A stretch of DNA of 64,000 bases from an uncultured Candidatus Saccharibacteria bacterium (GCA_964356815.1 CAYHIR010000002.1:7418-71417); one strand, 5' to 3'. Numbered from the stretch's first letter, positions 7,068-52,123 are shown. A program made the numbers and translations. Notes: generated from the letters alone by a model not told the origin.

Positions 7068-7376
7068 TCCGCGATAGCTCAGCTGGTAGAGCGAGCGACT
7101 GTGAACAAAATCGCAGCTTCCCGAAGTAATTCGGGTTGAAAAACGAGGTTAATTGCTGGAAGCCCACCCGATCGAAAGATCGCGGGTAATCAGCAGCCGA
7201 GCCTGTCATTCGACAGGAAGGTTCAGAGACTATCCCTAACGGGAGTACTTGGCCGAAAGGTCTAGGAAACACCTCGCGCCCCATTTATTGGGGCGATGAT
7301 ATAGTCCATCCCTTTAAGAAATTTTAGGATCGATGTAATCGCTTGGTCGCAGGTTCGAGTCCTGCTCGCGGAGCCA
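7068..7376 (+). tRNA. tRNA-Asn (anticodon GUU) interrupted in the anticodon loop by a group I intron
   Basis: 5' half 7068-7102: acceptor TCCGCGA, D-arm GCTC/AGCTGGTA/GAGC, anticodon stem AGCGA, loop CTGT. 3' half 7336-7376: TAA, TCGCT, variable TGGTC, T-arm GCAGG/TTCGAGT/CCTGC, acceptor TCGCGGA, discriminator G, CCA. The spliced anticodon loop is CUGUUAA. Confidence 0.75.
7103..7335 (+). ncRNA. group I self-splicing intron (233 nt, no ORF)
   Basis: R element GTTCAGAGACTA (7221-7232) and S element GATATAGTCC (7298-7307) form P7. The 5' exon ends in U and can pair with intron GCAG (7113-7116) as P1. The terminal nucleotide is G (omega-G) at 7335. Confidence 0.7.
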
Positions 7377-16171: not shown

Positions 16172-17219
16172 AAATTGGCGTGATTATCGAGATGGCAATA
16201 AAACCAACGGCCAAGCCAAGAGCGATCATGAGTGCCGGCTCGATCATTTTGGAAAAAGTCTCGATGTCCGACTCAAATATCTCAGAATTTATTTTGGCAA
16301 TTTGCCCGCAAACATCCGAAAGTGAGCCGGTGCGTTCGCCTATTGCTAAAATATTTATATACATTTTTGGGAAAAGCCAAGTGCCAGTGCTTCCGAGTGC
16401 CTCCGCCAACTGTTCTCCTTGAGTGATTTCTTCTTTCGCACTTTCAAGAGCCTGCCTGTACAAATCACTCGTCACAGTGAGTTTCGTCACCTCTATCGCT
16501 TCGACCAAATTGGTTCCAGAAGATGTCAAAACGCTAATCGATTTAAAAATATGAGAGACGGAATACGCCCGATACAAACCACCAAAAAGCGGTGCAAGCA
16601 AAAGAAATTTTTCTAAAAATATTCGCACGCTGGAAAATTTTTTGACAAGAAAGAAAACCGCCGTCACAAAAACGCTTAATCCGAGCACCAAAAATACCCA
16701 GTAATGTTTCAAAAAATCAGCCAGAAATATTACGACCCGAGTCGAGATCGGCAAATCACCTCTCACACTCTGAAGAACAGGAATGATTTTTGGAAAAATA
16801 AAACTCACAATGCCAGTTATTAAAATAAGTGCGAAAACCGCCACGCACGATGGGTAAATAAGCGCACCAATAATTTTTTTGCGAATTTCATTAGAGCGAG
16901 AAAGTTCATCCGCGGCATTTCCAAAAGAATCGCCAAGCGAACCACTCACCTCCCCCACCCTCACCAAAGCCAAAACTATCGATCGCCAACCAGAACTTTT
17001 ACCACCAGCAACAAAAAATTCGCTCAAAGCTTCACCACGATTTACTTCATCCGCCGCTTCCACAAAAAACGCACTGACTTTTTTCGAATGCGATTCATCG
17101 GCCAAAGTCGTCAAGCTTTCGTGCAAAGTCAGGCCAGAGCCGATCAAAACAGAAAGCTGGCGCGAAATGTAAATTTGATCCGCGAGACTTAGTTTTTTAA
17201 AATTAAACATATTAAACAT
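16143..17219 (-). CDS. pilC: type IV pilus / T2SS inner-membrane platform protein (GspF/PilC family)
   Basis: Two T2SSF-like repeats and three TM segments. Lies between the ATPase and the pseudopilins. Confidence 0.75.
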   Translation of the reverse strand: MFNMFNFKKLSLADQIYISRQLSVLIGSGLTLHESLTTLADESHSKKVSAFFVEAADEVNRGEALSEFFVAGGKSSGWRSIVLALVRVGEVSGSLGDSFGNAADELSRSNEIRKKIIGALIYPSCVAVFALILITGIVSFIFPKIIPVLQSVRGDLPISTRVVIFLADFLKHYWVFLVLGLSVFVTAVFFLVKKFSSVRIFLEKFLLLAPLFGGLYRAYSVSHIFKSISVLTSSGTNLVEAIEVTKLTVTSDLYRQALESAKEEITQGEQLAEALGSTGTWLFPKMYINILAIGERTGSLSDVCGQIAKINSEIFESDIETFSKMIEPALMIALGLAVGFIAISIITPIYEITSNVRR

Positions 17220-18438
17220 GTAAAACTCTAAAAAGCTCTTCGAATGTCGTCACGCCTCCGGCCACGGCATCGACACCGCAACCAAGCAAGCTCCGCCAAC
17301 CAATTTTTTCAAAATAATTTTTCAGCGCGTCATAACCAGCGCTTGATCTTATAAGTTCGCGCAGTTCATCATCTACAAAAACAATTTCGTAAACTACCGA
17401 CCGGCCACGAAAACCAGTCTTGCCACAAGCTTCACAGCCAGTACCGCGCATTTCTTTTTCGAGTCCGATCGGCTTTTTTAGCTTTAGCTCAGCCGCTTTC
17501 AAGCACCAGTTTGGGATTGGCGAAGGCTTAGCACACACAGAACAAACTTTTCTAACCAACCTTTGCGACACAACCACCGAAAGTGATGGCGCTAGTACAA
17601 AGCTCGGCACACCCATCGTAATGAGCCTCACGATTGTCCGCGGTGCATCCATAGTGTGCAGAGTAGAAAGAACCAAATGACCAGTGAGCGCCGCCGAGGC
17701 CGCAAGCTCGGCAGTTTCTGCATCACGAATCTCGCCAACCATCACCACATCCGGATCCTGTCTCAAAAGAGCGCGAAGCGCGGTGCTGAATGTAAAATTG
17801 TGCCGATGATGAACGGGTATCTGGGTCACTTTGCCGAGCGCATACTCTATCGGATCCTCTAGCGAGACAACAGAAATGTCTTTTTCTGCGACCATTTCCA
17901 AAATTTCATAAAGAGTTGTCGTTTTTCCAGAGCCTGTTGGGCCGGTTATGAGTATTAGGCCATCAGGCTGGCCAATGGCCCGCTCTATGAGCACACAATC
18001 GGCACTGGAAAAACCAAGATCGTACAACTTTCTCCTACCAGACGGCTTCGTGAGCAAACGCATAACCGCCTTTTCGCCCCAATATGTGGGCATAATAGAA
18101 AGACGAATATCGGCGAGCAAGCCAGCATAACGAAAAGTGTATCGGCCATCTTGCGGCAGAGTGTGAATATCTGTACGGAGGCGTGCCAGCACCTTAAGCC
18201 TAGCAATTAAACTGTCGTGTAAAGCGGGCGCAGGCGAATCTACTTCTCGCAATAAACCATCGACACGAAAACGCACAAATGAAGCACCTTCGCGTCTCTC
18301 TATATGAATGTCTGAAGCGCCTTTTTTAAGCGCCGACTCAATAAGCGTGTCTAAAGCCCGGGCCACACCCGGCACAACGATAGAAGCCGCATGAAGCGAG
18401 ACACCAATTGGACGAATTGAGATCTTTTCGTTGCTCAC
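17212..18438 (-). CDS. pilB: type IV pilus assembly / T2SS ATPase (GspE/PilB family)
   Basis: Walker A LITGPTGSGKTTTLY, Asp box VVSLEDPIEY, Walker B VMVGEIRD, His box GHLVLSTLHT and a C-terminal tetra-Cys motif CSVC...CEAC. Confidence 0.85.
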   Translation of the reverse strand: MSNEKISIRPIGVSLHAASIVVPGVARALDTLIESALKKGASDIHIERREGASFVRFRVDGLLREVDSPAPALHDSLIARLKVLARLRTDIHTLPQDGRYTFRYAGLLADIRLSIMPTYWGEKAVMRLLTKPSGRRKLYDLGFSSADCVLIERAIGQPDGLILITGPTGSGKTTTLYEILEMVAEKDISVVSLEDPIEYALGKVTQIPVHHRHNFTFSTALRALLRQDPDVVMVGEIRDAETAELAASAALTGHLVLSTLHTMDAPRTIVRLITMGVPSFVLAPSLSVVVSQRLVRKVCSVCAKPSPIPNWCLKAAELKLKKPIGLEKEMRGTGCEACGKTGFRGRSVVYEIVFVDDELRELIRSSAGYDALKNYFEKIGWRSLLGCGVDAVAGGVTTFEELFRVLHV

Positions 18439-22095: not shown

Positions 22096-22845
22096 ATGAA
22101 AGAATATAAATTAATCGCTTCTCTATTTATATTTACTGCAGGTTTAATTGTTGGGGTACAGCTTTTTAATATATCACCAAATCAGTTTTCATCCAGCACT
22201 TTTTCAGAGCAGTACAATAACACAGCCGCTGTTTTAAATGCTGAGAACAGCAAATTGTCACCCATAATCCGTGATTCTTATACACTCACACAACCCCACT
22301 CTTTTTTAATTCAACCATTTATCAACATAATTAAAGGTTTAGATTTTGGTTCTTCTAGCCAAAATGTCACTGTTCTTCAACAATTTCTTAATTCAATAGG
22401 TTATTTCCCGTCAAGCGTTGCACCTACTCAATATTTTGGACAAATTACTTCAAATGCTTTGAAGAACTTCCAAAAGACAAACAATCTTCCTCAAACTGGG
22501 GAGGTGGACAGTCCAACAGCTTCTGCTATTGAAAATTACTTTGGAGGTTCGTTTTCTTCTACAATGGACTTTGAACCAGGTGAAATTTCCACCAATCAAA
22601 ATGTTCCTGGACCCGAATTTGATTTTGGTGGCGTTTGCACAAATTATCCTCCTCCAGGTGGTTACGAACATTTTGGTGAGCAGTGTAATTGTATGCCGAC
22701 AGATATAGTTGCCAATTGGCAGGCTGTTGGTGAAGATGAATCAATTCTGGGCCCAGGAACATGTAAGGGCTTCGGTTATCGTCAAAGGTGCGATGGTAGT
22801 ATGTATGTTGGTTACTTTTTTAACTATTGTGAGGATGTGCTATAA
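22096..22845 (+). CDS. secreted/membrane-anchored hypothetical protein with putative peptidoglycan-binding domain and Cys-rich C-terminus
   Basis: N-terminal TM. VTVLQQFLNSIGYFPS...ITSNALKNFQKTNNLPQTGEVD resembles PG_binding_1. AT-rich; eight Cys in the last 70 aa. Confidence 0.5.
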   Translation: MKEYKLIASLFIFTAGLIVGVQLFNISPNQFSSSTFSEQYNNTAAVLNAENSKLSPIIRDSYTLTQPHSFLIQPFINIIKGLDFGSSSQNVTVLQQFLNSIGYFPSSVAPTQYFGQITSNALKNFQKTNNLPQTGEVDSPTASAIENYFGGSFSSTMDFEPGEISTNQNVPGPEFDFGGVCTNYPPPGGYEHFGEQCNCMPTDIVANWQAVGEDESILGPGTCKGFGYRQRCDGSMYVGYFFNYCEDVL

Positions 22846-27800: not shown

Positions 27801-27858
27801 TTGCAAAAATTATCTCCCCACTCCGAAATAAATAGTTTTGAGTAAGTATAAGAAATTA

Positions 27859-27968
27859 GAAAATCCCCCAAGTGTGTTGAAAAATGACTACGCAGGCCGA
27901 AGAGGCCGAGGACTAGGAAATTTCACCAGAAATTTCCGGTCATTTTGAAGCACACTTGGGGGATTTTC
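27859..27968. repeat. MITE-like palindromic element: 18-bp perfect terminal inverted repeats flanking a 70-bp core (copy 1 of 2)
   Basis: TIRs GAAAATCCCCCAAGTGTG / CACACTTGGGGGATTTTC. Core 27879-27948 differs at one base from 39128-39197. It contains GGCCGAAGAGGCC and GGAAATTTC-acca-GAAATTTCC. Confidence 0.6.
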
Positions 27969-27973
27969 TATTA

Positions 27974-38456: not shown

Positions 38457-39107
38457 CTAACCCCTCCTCCACCCCTCTATCCTCTTATGATCCCCCGATA
38501 GCAAAACTTTCGGCACATTATATTTTTTTCCTTTATAAACGAGCTTTTCCGGGCGCGTATACACATCCGAGCTGGCGGCGCGCGACTCTTCAATAGACTC
38601 GGCATTGCCGAGGACTTCTGGCACTTGGCGGGCGACAGCATCTAAGATAATCATGGCTGGCAATTCCCCACCAGTGAGCACGAATGGGCCAACAGAAATT
38701 TCTTCAGCGCGGAAAATTTTTCTCACGCGAGCGTCGACACCTTCATAACGACCGCAGATGATAATTATGTCTGTGAATTTTTTAGAAAATTGCGAGGCGA
38801 CTTCGTTTGTAAATTGTTTGCCGGACGGCGAGAGAAAGACGATCTTCGGCTTCTTTTTAGATTTTTTGGCTGCAGTGCCGAGGGCTTTTTCAATTGCCTT
38901 AATAATCGGCTCGGCACGCATCACTCGGCCGGGGCCGCCGCCGTAGGGTTTGTCGTCGGCACGCTTGGCAGAACCTTTCGGCTCAAAATCTTTTGGATCG
39001 TAAAATTTGACCGCGATTTTTTTGTCTTCTATCGCACGCTTAATAATCGACTCGCCGAGGTATGAGTCAAATGATTTTGGGAAAAGGGTGATTATATGAA
39101 AAATCAT
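38457..39107 (-). CDS. trmD: tRNA (guanine37-N1)-methyltransferase
   Basis: SPOUT/TrmD motifs (ICGRYEGVDARV, GGELPAMII). Short form of 216 aa. Confidence 0.8.
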   Translation of the reverse strand: MIFHIITLFPKSFDSYLGESIIKRAIEDKKIAVKFYDPKDFEPKGSAKRADDKPYGGGPGRVMRAEPIIKAIEKALGTAAKKSKKKPKIVFLSPSGKQFTNEVASQFSKKFTDIIIICGRYEGVDARVRKIFRAEEISVGPFVLTGGELPAMIILDAVARQVPEVLGNAESIEESRAASSDVYTRPEKLVYKGKKYNVPKVLLSGDHKRIEGWRRG

Positions 39108-39127
39108 TTTGGTTTTTTCGTTTGTAA

Positions 39128-39197
39128 ATAATGTATCGAAAAATGACTACGCAGGCCGAAAAGGCCGAGGACTAGGAAATTTCACCAGAAATTTCCG
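39128..39197. repeat. 70-bp palindromic repeat core (copy 2 of 2), without outer TIRs
   Basis: 69 of 70 nt identical to 27879-27948. Lies between trmD and the upstream KH-domain gene. Confidence 0.6.
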
Positions 39198-39233
39198 GTC
39201 ATTTTGAGATATTTTATTTACAAACGAAACTAA

Positions 39234-39545
39234 CTAAAGCTTGAGATCCGCCATCGCCTCATCTACCGTCTTCGAAGCCTTAACACCCTTTGTACTACCT
39301 TCAGGTTCGTTGATTTTTAGATTGACACGAGCGTTGTTTTTCATACCGACGACTCGGAGAAGGGTGCGGACGGCCTTTGCGGTGTTGCCTTCGCGACCGA
39401 TGACTTTGCCCATGTCGGCGGAGTGGACATCGAGGGTGAGGAGAACGCCCATTTCGTCTACCGTGCGCTGAATCTTGACATCATTTGGATTATCTACTAG
39501 AGATTTGATTACAAATTCCAAAAACTGTGCGTCGTTTTCCATCAT
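39234..39545 (-). CDS. KH-domain RNA-binding protein (YlqC/UPF0109 family)
   Basis: VIGREGNTAKAVRTLL KH motif. Lies between rpsP and trmD as in many bacteria. Confidence 0.75.
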   Translation of the reverse strand: MMENDAQFLEFVIKSLVDNPNDVKIQRTVDEMGVLLTLDVHSADMGKVIGREGNTAKAVRTLLRVVGMKNNARVNLKINEPEGSTKGVKASKTVDEAMADLKL

Positions 39546-49643: not shown

Positions 49644-50543
49644 CTATTTTTTCAATAAAATATTTATAGCTTTTGTAACGATCGGTAAAATGTCGTTGTA
49701 AAAATTGAGATCGAGAATGTCGGCGAGCTTAAACCACTTTGCGTCGTCGAGACCACCGTTGCCTTCTTCGAGCTTTAGATCTGTGAACTTTGCTTCGGCG
49801 AGGAAATACATAACGTGCTTTTTCTTTTTGCCAGTTTCAGGATGAAACGCAATGTATTCGTTTTCGCCGAGTTTTTCCTTTATCTCCACATCGAGACCAA
49901 TCTCCTGCTTAAGCTCACGCTTGGTACCGGCATCATCGGCCTCCCCTGGCTCAATATGGCCCTTAGAAAGCGTCCAGTGGCCGAAAACGTCGTGAACGAG
50001 CGCTAGATAAATGTCGCCCTCGTGGTGAGCATATACGATAGCGCCGCCCAATTTTTCCACCGGAAGCTGATCATCGGGCACGTCTTTAAATTTCTTTTTT
50101 TTTGAGACTTCGTTTTTGCCCGGCTCGCCCATTTCCTTATAAACAGCACCGAGCACGCCGTTTACAAACTTACTACTCGTGTCGCCACCAAAAGTTTTTG
50201 CAAGCTCGATAGCTTCGTTGATGGCAACCTTCGGCGGCACTTCTTTATGGTCGGCAAAAATGAGTTCGTACAAGCCGAGTCGAAGAATATTTCGATCAAC
50301 GACAGAAATTTTTTCTAGTGGCCACTCAGGAGCGGCTTTGACAATAATATTGTCTAGATCGGGCTTTTTGCGAAAAACCTGACGCATCAGATTTTCCATA
50401 AAAGAAAAATCGTTCATTCCAGGAGCGAATTCCTGGACGTTTCGAGAAAAAATCTCCATAGCCTCGGCTTCAGTTTTGACGTTGAAGTCGGCTTCGAAAA
50501 GTGATTGTACAACTATAGATCTTGCAAGGTGTCTATTTGCCAT
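49644..50543 (-). CDS. nusB: NusB-like antitermination domain fused to a C-terminal NUDIX hydrolase domain
   Basis: N-terminal 140 aa are NusB-like (ARSIVVQSLFEADF...FVNGVLGAVYKEM). C-terminal domain has the Nudix box GHIEPGEADDAGTKRELKQEIGL. Confidence 0.7.
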   Translation of the reverse strand: MANRHLARSIVVQSLFEADFNVKTEAEAMEIFSRNVQEFAPGMNDFSFMENLMRQVFRKKPDLDNIIVKAAPEWPLEKISVVDRNILRLGLYELIFADHKEVPPKVAINEAIELAKTFGGDTSSKFVNGVLGAVYKEMGEPGKNEVSKKKKFKDVPDDQLPVEKLGGAIVYAHHEGDIYLALVHDVFGHWTLSKGHIEPGEADDAGTKRELKQEIGLDVEIKEKLGENEYIAFHPETGKKKKHVMYFLAEAKFTDLKLEEGNGGLDDAKWFKLADILDLNFYNDILPIVTKAINILLKK

Positions 50544-50610: not shown

Positions 50611-50838
50611 CTACGCCCTAACCTTGGCCTTCTCCTTAACCTTTTTGGCCTTTTTAGCGAGCTTGGCGGCCATATCTATGACCTTTTTACCCCTATACAT
50701 GCCGCAATTTAAGCAAACCGCATGAGGGAGCTTTGAGGCTTTGCAATTTGTACATGTCAAAAACTGACCAGCCTTTAAAGCGTGATGGGATCGGCGGTTG
50801 CCGGTATGGGATCTAGTTGAACGCATTCTGACTACCAT
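50611..50838 (-). CDS. rpmF: 50S ribosomal protein L32 with lysine-rich C-terminal tail
   Basis: RSTRSHTGNRRSHHAL plus the CxxC...CxxC zinc ribbon. Confidence 0.75.
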   Translation of the reverse strand: MVVRMRSTRSHTGNRRSHHALKAGQFLTCTNCKASKLPHAVCLNCGMYRGKKVIDMAAKLAKKAKKVKEKAKVRA

Positions 50839-50887
50839 GGGTTGGATTGTACACGATTATTTAATAAAGACAATGCTCACAGCAGAA

Positions 50888-51000
50888 AGTATGACTGAAG
50901 TAACCGGCGTAGATTTCTACTGAAATCTCGCCTCACTCGGAGCCGCCTACGCGGCTTCCGAGAGTTACTTCAGTCATACTTTCTGCTGTGGCCACTAGTT
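50888..51000. repeat. 113-bp nested palindrome: 27-bp perfect inverted repeats enclosing two internal hairpins
   Basis: Arms CACAGCAGAAAGTATGACTGAAGTAAC / GTTACTTCAGTCATACTTTCTGCTGTG. Internal AGATTTC/GAAATCT and CTCGGAGCCGC/GCGGCTTCCGAG hairpins. Confidence 0.6.
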
Positions 51001-51053
51001 ATTAAAATAATTGTTAAAAAACTGGCAAGAAAAAACTCCCTGGGTCCACGGAC

Positions 51054-51377
51054 TCAGGGAGCTTGGTTCAAATTGCACAGGAGACCTTGGCCACTGTGGC
51101 GTTGGTCGAACAGGTGAAGCTTCGGGGGAGCTCTGGACCGGCGTGGAGAGAAAATGCGAGTTGACAACACACGGCTCCTACTCATTGAGAGTTTGGAGCT
51201 CTCACTCTCACGGTTAGGAAATTGCCATTCAGCAACCCCCTTTCCGCCGTAAGAGTATCGCAGCAAGGGACAGAACGCCCAATCTTCAGTGATGTATCCC
51301 GCCACTGCCCCAGGAGCAACGAAAATGAGGCAGATTGCCGGAAACAATGCATCGACGATGCCAGATGTATCGATCAC
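51054..51377 (-). CDS. hypothetical small protein with hydrophobic N-terminus (GC-rich cassette gene)
   Basis: GTG start preceded by AAAGGAGGAAGG. TTGACA-N16-TAAATT promoter overlaps the rnhB 3' end. About 56% GC. Confidence 0.35.
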   Translation of the reverse strand: MIDTSGIVDALFPAICLIFVAPGAVAGYITEDWAFCPLLRYSYGGKGVAEWQFPNRESESSKLSMSRSRVLSTRIFSPRRSRAPPKLHLFDQRHSGQGLLCNLNQAP

Positions 51378-51478
51378 AACCTTCCTCCTTTCTGTGTCTG
51401 AGGTTAATGGTCAAGATGACGACAGAAAACGCTAGAGAACGCGCCTAGTAAAGAAATTTACTCCAAAAGATTTTTCTG

Positions 51479-52123
51479 TCAAGTAAAATTTTTCACAAAA
51501 CTCCTCCGATGCAAATCGCAGAGGCCATTTTCGCGGATTTTTTTAATATGAAAACTGGTGCCATAACCCTTGTGTTTTTCAAAACCAAACTCGGGATAAA
51601 TTTTGGCGAGCTTGCACATTTTTCTGTCGCGCAAAACTTTGGCCGCGATGGAAGCCAAAGAAATTATTGGTTCGAGTCGGTCACCGCCGCTAATTGTTTC
51701 TTGAAATAAAAAATATTCGGGCGCTTTGAGGCCGCCGTCAAGCAGAATAAGTGTCTGACTCGGATTAAGATTGAGCCTGTCGAGAGCACGACGCATGGCG
51801 AGAGAGATGGAATGAGTCAGACCGTGAGTGTCAACTTTTTCTGCGCCAACAAATGCCACGCGAAAATCGAGCAGACCATCGCGCTGACCAATGCGAATTT
51901 TTTTAAACCATTCGTCGCGAGCATCTGGTGAAAGTTGTTTTGAATCGCGAGCTTGACGGAAATTTTTGGGCAATTTACCCACCGCAAAAACCATCGCGCC
52001 AACTGCAACCGGCCCTGCGAGTGGACCACGGCCAACTTCATCGACACCAACGATGTATTTGATTTGACTTGGCTTTTGTGTTTTAAAAATGAGGCGCATA
52101 CGATTAGTGTATAATTTTATCAT
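51479..52123 (-). CDS. rnhB: ribonuclease HII
   Basis: VGVDEVGRGPLAGPV active-site motif. Confidence 0.85.
   Translation of the reverse strand: MIKLYTNRMRLIFKTQKPSQIKYIVGVDEVGRGPLAGPVAVGAMVFAVGKLPKNFRQARDSKQLSPDARDEWFKKIRIGQRDGLLDFRVAFVGAEKVDTHGLTHSISLAMRRALDRLNLNPSQTLILLDGGLKAPEYFLFQETISGGDRLEPIISLASIAAKVLRDRKMCKLAKIYPEFGFEKHKGYGTSFHIKKIRENGLCDLHRRSFVKNFT

Follow-up and report, generated by a model that had tools for sequence, protein, structure and literature searches.

Genes and signals around the palindrome

A long palindrome, which we call element T, lies upstream of rpmF (50611-50838) in the window, that is, the whole stretch of 64,000 nucleotides (64 kb) that was analysed. All of the surrounding genes are on the minus strand; by increasing coordinate they are smc, rnc, the gene for a NusB-NUDIX fusion and rpmF, followed by the palindrome, an ORFan unit and rnhB (51479-52123), with rnc the third gene downstream of T. 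An earlier note on this DNA had correctly placed the palindrome between the rpmF start (at 50838) and an ORF at 51054-51377, and had pointed out the proximity of rnc, which is about 1.24 kb from T. The NusB-NUDIX hydrolase fusion (49644-50543, minus strand, 299 aa) is conserved in thousands of Patescibacteria homologues.

The rpmF promoter lies between T and its gene (Table 1), and only 4 nt separate the edge of T, which is upstream, from the −35 box. A common promoter pattern, TTGnnT-N17-TGTAyAAT, is found 6-7 nt before the ATG in five genomes (50836-50873 in the window and the relatives L004, L005, L006 and L007; relatives are cited by L number throughout). The closeness of the −10 box to the start codon, conserved in five genomes, implies that the rpmF mRNA is leaderless in this lineage and, since T is upstream of the −35 box, that T is not part of an rpmF 5′ UTR. 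On its other side T is separated from the ORFan unit by a canonical intrinsic terminator of that unit.

The spacing between rnhB and rpmF is only 32-41 bp, with no element, in the closest relatives (L004, L007 and L010 are empty), and the gap ranges from 37 to 2952 bp across about 60 relatives. Thus, the window carries a 640-bp lineage-specific insertion at a hotspot. This hotspot (50839-51478 in the window; L004-L087) holds unrelated, often GC-rich ORFans, among them one of 188 aa in L005 that is NUDIX-like and one of 222 aa in L006. ORF107, in the insertion of the window, had no homologues among 1.8 billion representatives searched, no Pfam domain and no RNA-fold signal. Long hairpins of other kinds, without the core described below, also occur upstream of the rpmF promoter in relatives (L024:493-546, L011:3583-3667 and L058:3233-3405); among these are a perfect hairpin of 25 bp, another whose arms are 31 nt long, and ACTACAGTTAACTGTAGT palindromes in tandem.

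Table 1. Coordinates of element T, its neighbouring signals and the two other family members in the window
Feature	Position	Strand	Description
T 3′ outer arm (sense = minus-strand orientation)	50878..50904	-	27 nt, perfect pairing with 50964-50990
T 5′ outer arm (sense orientation)	50964..50990	-	Contains ...CUGAAGUAAC; fully Watson-Crick paired
T core hairpin h1	50936..50962	-	GC-rich arm of three-way junction; sense CUCGGAAGCCGC-GUAG-GCGGCUCCGAG; aligns to model positions 8-30
T core hairpin h2	50906..50932	-	Family AGYA tetraloop and bulged A; sense GGCGAGAUUUC-AGUA-GAAAUCU-A-CGCC
T match to family-core covariance models	50901..50968	-	52.1 bits with R1; 35.1 bits (E 2e-6) with R2
rpmF promoter	50846..50873	-	Sigma-70-type, TTGTCT-N16-TACAAT; -10 box 7 nt before ATG at 50838; arrangement kept in five genomes
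Intrinsic terminator of upstream ORFan unit	51029..51064	-	Canonical; 13-bp stem and U6, -19.8 kcal/mol; between that unit and T
ORF107	51054..51377	-	Part of GC-rich unit in insertion between rnhB and rpmF; strong SD
Member A	27857..27970	+	70-nt core, tandem GA loop; outer stem AAAATCCCCC.../...GGGGGATTTT, unrelated, terminator-like; between ORF208 and rpoD 3′ end
Member B	39107..39238	+	Core 1 nt from that of A; outer stem unrelated to that of A; fills gap between KH-protein gene and trmD, antisense to that operon

Anatomy and folding of T

T has two perfectly matching arms of 27 nt (CACAGCAGAAAGTATGACTGAAGTAAC and its reverse complement), with 59 nt between them. The earlier note had described these sequence features exactly as we find them, but had placed the arms 10 nt too high, at 50888-50914 and 50974-51000. 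Both hairpins that it had proposed within the centre are borne out: AGATTTC pairs with GAAATCT (50911-50917 and 50922-50928), and CTCGGAGCCGC pairs with GCGGCT(T)CCGAG within 50936-50962, with one bulged base. The base of the stem reads CACAGC...GCUGUG, and GTTAC is found only at the inner end of the arms.

Folding predictions, which had been suggested for both strands, give a three-way junction from either strand of T. The minimum free energy (MFE) of T as RNA is −83 to −87 kcal/mol (z = −13.5 and −14.0) and that of T as DNA is about −54 kcal/mol (z = −14 and −16), values equalled by no shuffle in either case; similarly, a 27-mer match with up to three mismatches is absent from all 100 shuffles of the window. 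At least five assemblies made independently from this population, one of them of a strain 1.5% diverged across the region, have T with an unchanged sequence, and T is therefore not an assembly artefact.

The candidate role of T as a canonical terminator does not hold. On the sense strand the T stem is followed by AGCAUUGUCUUUAUU, with no U-tract, and a terminator scan was silent at T and reported a separate terminator at 51064-51029. We also considered whether the outer stems of the family described below are ordinary bidirectional terminators; this holds for A and L054, which have A-tract/U-tract flanks, but not for most members or for T.

A conserved core with locus-specific arms

The earlier note had proposed a genome-wide search for the 27-mer arms and had taken arms unique to this locus, in combination with a lack of discrete transcript ends or processing products, as evidence against its reading, and the arms are indeed unique. 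None was found elsewhere in the window (up to three mismatches), in metagenomes or in viral contigs, and 596 Gb of genomes yielded one one-armed chance match, inside a Clostridia CDS; the searches of genomes, metagenomes and viral contigs used a 20-23-mer of the arm. Among relatives collected through the NusB-NUDIX protein, L006 and L081 have a three-way junction upstream of the rpmF promoter, at the same position as T, with a wholly different outer stem and a recognisably homologous centre. A search with the conserved hairpin core brought out two more elements in the window, A and B (Table 1), which together with T make up the three longest inverted repeats of the 64 kb. Thus, the arm search came back empty because the outer arms are locus-specific, and T is a family member despite its unique arms by virtue of its conserved centre. 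As a test of whether T is a repeat, the arm search would have misled.

Two covariance models define membership in the family: R1 is a model of the family core, and R2 was built from other genomes only, with no window sequence. In the window, R1 detects only T, A and B, at 52-60 bits, with the next match at 15 bits; it also recovers members outside its training set (L078, L086, L041, L042, L051, L017, L263 and L272), all of which fold as long-stem three-way junctions. With R2, applied to both strands of the window with filters off, T is the top match (Table 1), and A and B, which belong to a more divergent sub-type, score about 17 bits. In total, the core is common to T, A, B and at least 14 elements from related Patescibacteria (Parcubacteria/Paceibacteria-like) genomes of groundwater bacteria.

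A weak match at 16586-16630 (plus strand), inside pilC/T2SSF, scores 15-18 bits with both models and is probably due to chance. Two further inverted repeats of the window, at 22601-22762 and 17921-18014 (24-nt and 19-nt arms), were rejected as members, as they are of a non-family type and fall within the genes for a PG_binding-domain protein and PilB/T2SSE, respectively.

The elements of the family, which we term capped hairpins, are ∼100-140 nt long and intergenic, with a core of 55-70 nt. Read along the sense strand, the consensus order is outer stem, GA, inner stem, h1, h2, inner stem, GA, outer stem. Hairpin h1 is GC-rich, usually GNGAGCGC-GACG-GCGCGAN and usually with a GA/GA internal loop, while h2 is A/U-rich, about AAAAUUUC-AGCA-GAAAUUU-A, with an AGYA tetraloop and a bulged final A. 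In most cases a short inner stem and a tandem G.A loop close the core, and the sequence of the outer stem is specific to each locus. The tandem G.A loop between outer and inner stems is present in A, B, L006, L263, L047, L054, L081 and L272, but absent in T. T is thus an atypical member: its outer arm has Watson-Crick pairs where most family members carry the tandem G.A internal loop, and the loop of its h1 is GUAG.

The pairing of h2 is maintained while its sequence changes. All cells (100%) of the h2 alignment are paired and eight of the nine pairs change on both sides, a result matched by none of 500 shuffles and far above that of slid controls, in an alignment that was fitted to the model and thus somewhat favours structure. 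The h2 stems vary widely (AAAUUUC/GAAAUUU, AAACCCU/AGGGUU, CGUUUUU/AAAAACG and AAAAGCC/GGCUUUU), but the loop and the bulge are constant. Relatives with NusB identity as low as 65% keep the AGYA loop, the bulged A and the GA loops.

Besides the site upstream of rpmF, the family occupies the 3′ end of rpoD, the gap between the KH-protein gene and trmD, the 3′ end of smc and a site upstream of rpsP. Its density is about one element per 20-40 kb of sampled sequence, beside the core genes rpmF, rpoD, trmD, rpsP and smc. In the nusB-rnc gap of another relative (L036:1105-1250, minus strand) there is a divergent long-stem three-way junction with an h2-like GCUUUUC-GCAG-GAAAAGC, which was missed by the covariance model and suggests a wider superfamily. 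An unrelated perfect palindrome, GATAACATACGATATATCGTATGTTATC, directly follows the element at the 3′ end of smc (L078:7829-7856 and L051:7822-7848).

A whole-window scan with Rfam 15 gave no match at T, A or B at the gathering threshold, permissive scans of T, A and L006 gave only generic long-hairpin noise far below threshold, and T showed no tRNA or tmRNA identity. Viral origin was rejected as well: the h1 16-mer and h2 pattern match many viral contigs, but these matches reach at most 28 bits and consist of the pre-selected hairpin only, with no full element. In the literature that we searched on structured or palindromic repeats in CPR/Patescibacteria, we found no prior account of the capped-hairpin family.

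Elsewhere in the window, the Rfam scan identified a group I intron at 7093-7328 (plus strand; RF00028, 70.9 bits, E 5.6e-16), and ARAGORN found no tRNA anywhere in the 64 kb. It has been reported that group I introns conceal tRNA-Asn and tRNA-Asp genes in Patescibacteria (PMC13011429, 2026). The intron of the window may be such a case.

One strand of the element is distinguished

The two strands of the elements are not equivalent. The sense strand, as defined by the model, is more stable in 15 of 15 members, with a ddG of −3.8 to −14.5 kcal/mol. In the same 15 members G.U pairs number 45 on the sense strand versus 11 on the antisense strand, and the GA/GA loops exist on the sense strand only. 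The stability bias, the excess of G.U pairs and the sense-only GA loops together point to one strand as the functional one, either as RNA or as single-stranded DNA.

This polarity tracks neither transcription nor replication. The elements T, L006 and L081 are oriented as rpmF, but the element of L054 is at the same site as T in the opposite orientation, and B, L041 and L054 are antisense to their host operons. Overall orientation to neighbouring genes is mixed, with about 8-10 of 13 copies lying just 3′ of a co-directional gene in sense orientation. A link to the direction of replication was rejected, since T is opposite to A and B with no switch in GC skew between them.

Gain, loss and rearrangement of the elements

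Copies within a genome resemble each other more than copies in different genomes. The cores of A and B differ at one of 70 nt, and their outer stems are unrelated. In the genome of L006 and L263, the elements upstream of rpmF and upstream of rpsP, respectively, are near-identical over their whole length, arms included, and the differences between them are compensatory. By comparison, the site is the same for T and L006, whose genomes share 81% NusB identity, and yet the two cores are very different; the core of L006 is nearly the same as that of L047, an element at a different site in a more distantly related genome. The 64-kb window has three copies, all of them intergenic.

Elements are present in some close relatives and missing in others at three loci: the rnhB-rpmF gap, the 3′ end of smc (L039 empty) and the 3′ end of rpoD (L271 empty, L272 filled). 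Just 5′ of A, the segment 27076-27748 is 52% GC, has long ORFs on both strands (208 aa plus, 220 aa minus) and has no Pfam match; about 600 nt of it are missing from L271. Contigs also begin in or next to elements, inside the core of B (L259 and L260), 10 nt after T (L267) and inside another core (L017), as is expected for repeated or palindromic sequence.

Two comparisons bear on how core and arms are related. In a sister species (L262, TrmD 89% identical), the element in the gap between the KH-protein gene and trmD has outer arms homologous to those of B, with three compensatory T-A to C-G changes, but between these homologous arms its core is in the orientation opposite to that of B. In L272, the final 17 nt of the rpoD CDS (LRNY-stop) form part of the rpoD-side arm, which the far arm nearly repeats in inverted orientation; the arm that contains rpoD coding sequence argues that arms are made out of the host DNA next to them. 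We considered whether, as a general rule, the core had inserted into a ready-made outer hairpin and found this unsupported, as the ‘empty’ sites of L039, L263 and L271 carry different, short hairpins.

We found no direct repeat indicative of a target-site duplication at T, L006 or L263, and the empty-site comparisons, including that of the nusB-rnc site, are too diverged to define boundaries. The GC-rich units upstream of the elements have no mutual similarity (blastn, tblastx), no Pfam matches and no folding signal that would point to shared cargo or a large RNA. Among the roughly 40 ORFs of the 64-kb window (∼6% of a genome assumed to be ∼1 Mb), there was no gene for a transposase, an integrase, a Y1/RAYT protein or a Nop-domain protein, nor any other candidate partner such as an autonomous IS with matching ends.

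Interpretation and alternative explanations

We give about an even chance to the interpretation that T belongs, as one copy, to a dispersed family of structured repeats resembling REPINs or MITEs, whose cap is conserved and strand-specific and whose arms are generated at each locus. Among the candidates of the earlier note, an insertion-sequence remnant or MITE came closest, in that the elements form a dispersed, multi-copy family subject to gain and loss; the conserved terminal inverted repeats of a MITE, however, are not found, as the arms of T, A and B are unrelated and only the L006/L263 pair shares arms. The anatomy of T, its place in the family, the covariation, the strand asymmetry, gain and loss, the near-identity of copies in one genome, the flipped core and the arm with coding sequence are all observed, whereas how the elements might move, where their arms might come from and what function, if any, the family might have are inferred.

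The core would be a module that is copied, homogenised, flipped, gained and lost, in the manner of a non-autonomous repeat of the REPIN or MITE kind. The arms may be made and kept complementary locally, by inverted duplication or by template-switch correction of neighbouring host DNA, and the template switching may be nucleated by the inner stem of the core itself, as one clear case, L272, and the ‘corrected’ GA loop of T would suggest. Such local making of arms would explain why the arms of T are perfect and yet unique, and why its GA loop is lost. The conserved strand-asymmetric features imply a trans-acting factor that recognises one folded single strand, which might be either single-stranded DNA, with a transposase-like enzyme as the partner, or RNA. 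Within the 640-bp insertion, T has the terminator of the ORFan unit on one side and the promoter of the leaderless rpmF on the other, and its effects there, if any, would probably be by-products; it might block read-through or, if transcribed, be a substrate for RNase III. It is not obvious that a mobile unit consisting of the core only, as A and B would have it, and a copy of the whole element, as in L006 and L263, are products of one mechanism.

A functional structured non-coding RNA family is the main alternative, possible if somewhat unlikely. The element would be either a cis element at 3′ ends or between operon genes (with a conserved protein bound, and acting in stability, in processing or as an insulator) or a small RNA gene; its outer stem would serve as a helix for processing, for instance by RNase III, or for protection, and the dynamics at the DNA level would be secondary. 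The strong covariation of h2 around an invariant loop and bulge argues for such an RNA, as do the more stable sense strand in 15 of 15 members and its 45 G.U pairs versus 11. The tandem internal loops of sheared-G.A type in P1 and h1, found on the sense strand only, point the same way, but T has lost its GA loop. About 8-10 of 13 copies lie in sense just 3′ of a gene in the same direction, but B, L041 and L054 are antisense to their operons, and the core flip between homologous arms in sister species would place the wrong strand in any fixed transcript. No conserved promoter or terminator flanks the elements, T itself sits between a strong terminator and the next promoter, and Rfam has no match, even in permissive searches. 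The outer stems of the orthologous L078, L086 and L042 present a series from A-U to G.U to G-C; compensatory changes with G.U intermediates are classical signatures of RNA, and they count against the repeat interpretation. Similarly, conservation of the core down to 65% NusB identity goes deeper than usual for selfish repeats and suits a functional RNA equally well; against a functional RNA, the elements are dispensable, being missing at the same sites in close relatives.

We consider two further explanations very improbable. If T were a locus-specific regulator of the rpmF-nusB-rnc-smc operon (a terminator, an attenuator or an RNase III autoregulatory site), the 27 bp of perfect double-stranded RNA predicted on either strand would be a structurally plausible substrate for RNase III, in principle long enough for the enzyme, whose substrates have about two or more helical turns of uninterrupted duplex, and rnc is the third gene downstream; moreover, T, L006 and L081 are placed identically with respect to the rpmF promoter. 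This explanation is already largely refuted by the distribution of the family, which recurs at the unrelated rpoD, KH/trmD, smc and rpsP loci. It also has to accommodate the element-free gap of 32-41 bp in the closest relatives, a promoter that lies downstream of T and yields a leaderless mRNA, a stem without a U-tract and the reversed element of L054 at the same site. The link to rnc that had been drawn from its proximity is thus unsupported: because other copies are at unrelated loci, the closeness of T to rnc is coincidental, and any effect of T on rpmF or rnc would be incidental.

According to the other such explanation, the element would be a single-strand recombination site that resembles attC and ends a mobile cassette on its 3′ side; a GC-rich ORFan and its structured site would have been inserted at the hotspot by a site-specific recombinase. 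Integron attC sites are likewise imperfect palindromes of ∼60-140 nt that keep structure over sequence, and they function, as the elements of the family may, when one particular strand is folded on its own. Five members (T, A, L006, L047 and L051) have an unrelated GC-rich ORFan segment directly on their 5′ side (sense), which places some copies 3′ of ORFan cassettes, and the rnhB-rpmF gap, at 37 to 2952 bp, behaves as an insertion hotspot; but L081, L027, L041 and B have no cargo, and the cargo ORFs have neither homologues nor Pfam domains. The family keeps its structure with variable stem sequences, but its pattern of conservation is reversed: attC sites conserve the R/L boxes at the base, vary the apex and have extrahelical bases, whereas the family conserves the apex and varies the base, has no R″/R′ core sites (RYYYAAC / GTTRRRY) at the stem base and, in T, has no extrahelical bases. 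Moreover, no integrase was found in the 64-kb window, and no attI context was seen.

A bolder picture can be drawn, which we offer tentatively and regard as unlikely. In this picture, a compact, protein-less, self-folding three-way-junction cassette would spread or be exchanged among the intergenic hairpins of streamlined CPR genomes, flip between arms and grow a locus-specific stem from host flanks, with its conserved asymmetric cap as the putative binding site of a conserved factor encoded by the host or the element; a structured RNA class that is abundant in Patescibacteria and has a conserved protein partner would be equally novel. Patescibacteria genomes are roughly 1 Mb and are thought to be stripped of repeats and mobile DNA. 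The family would therefore represent either a REPIN-type replicator that persists within genomes of a phylum where none was expected, or a previously overlooked RNA whose partner is conserved. In practical terms, these elements break metagenome assemblies, escape arm-based repeat searches and can pass for terminators or locus-specific regulators.

Comparison with known systems

Quasipalindrome template-switch correction is a mutational process known from E. coli and phage. It fits the near-perfect arms, changes that look compensatory without selection, growth into the flanks (L272/rpoD) and the loss of the GA loop in T; however, it is a mutational process rather than a family of elements, and it leaves the conserved asymmetric core unexplained. 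TIGR stem-loop arrays are also found in CPR bacteria, with variable palindromic stems, an interior of conserved format and GA-containing (box C/D) motifs, but they are tandem arrays with variable spacers beside a Tas (Nop-domain) gene (PMC12045711). We rejected a TIGR array on architecture, as the copies in the window are dispersed singletons separated by 11-23 kb, their interior is conserved and fully base-paired, and the window lacks a Nop-domain gene.

The closest known classes are REPINs and Correia elements/MITEs, and T stands apart from them in that its arms are not conserved, no target-site duplication was evident and the window has no known transposase. The CREE/NEMIS elements of Neisseria and other MITEs are likewise intergenic, ∼100-150 bp long, and composed of inverted repeats of ∼26-27 bp and a core; they are promoter-adjacent, closely related strains differ in carrying them, and the long duplexes formed by their transcripts can be bound or cleaved by RNase III (PMC2649163, PMC2229807, PMC10969869). 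The terminal inverted repeats of CREE and other MITEs, however, are conserved, and a target-site duplication is present (TA in CREE), whereas the arms of the family differ between near-identical cores, no duplication was found, and one arm comes from host coding sequence.

The likeness to REPINs and the REP-RAYT system extends to dynamics: these are short extragenic long hairpins with many copies per genome and higher resemblance within a genome, are inherited mostly vertically but gained and lost locally, are found in both orientations, and show strand-specific features of the hairpin that might be read by a trans-acting enzyme (PMC3116915, PMC3337134). In contrast, a REPIN is two inverted copies of one REP around a variable spacer, while the capped-hairpin family has an asymmetric two-hairpin apex and locus-specific arms, and there is no RAYT (Y1 transposase) in the 64-kb window of T. 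A conserved apex combined with arms that are made locally would be the reverse of the arrangement in classical MITEs, REPINs and attC sites, and would provide a natural example of palindrome growth from host flanks.
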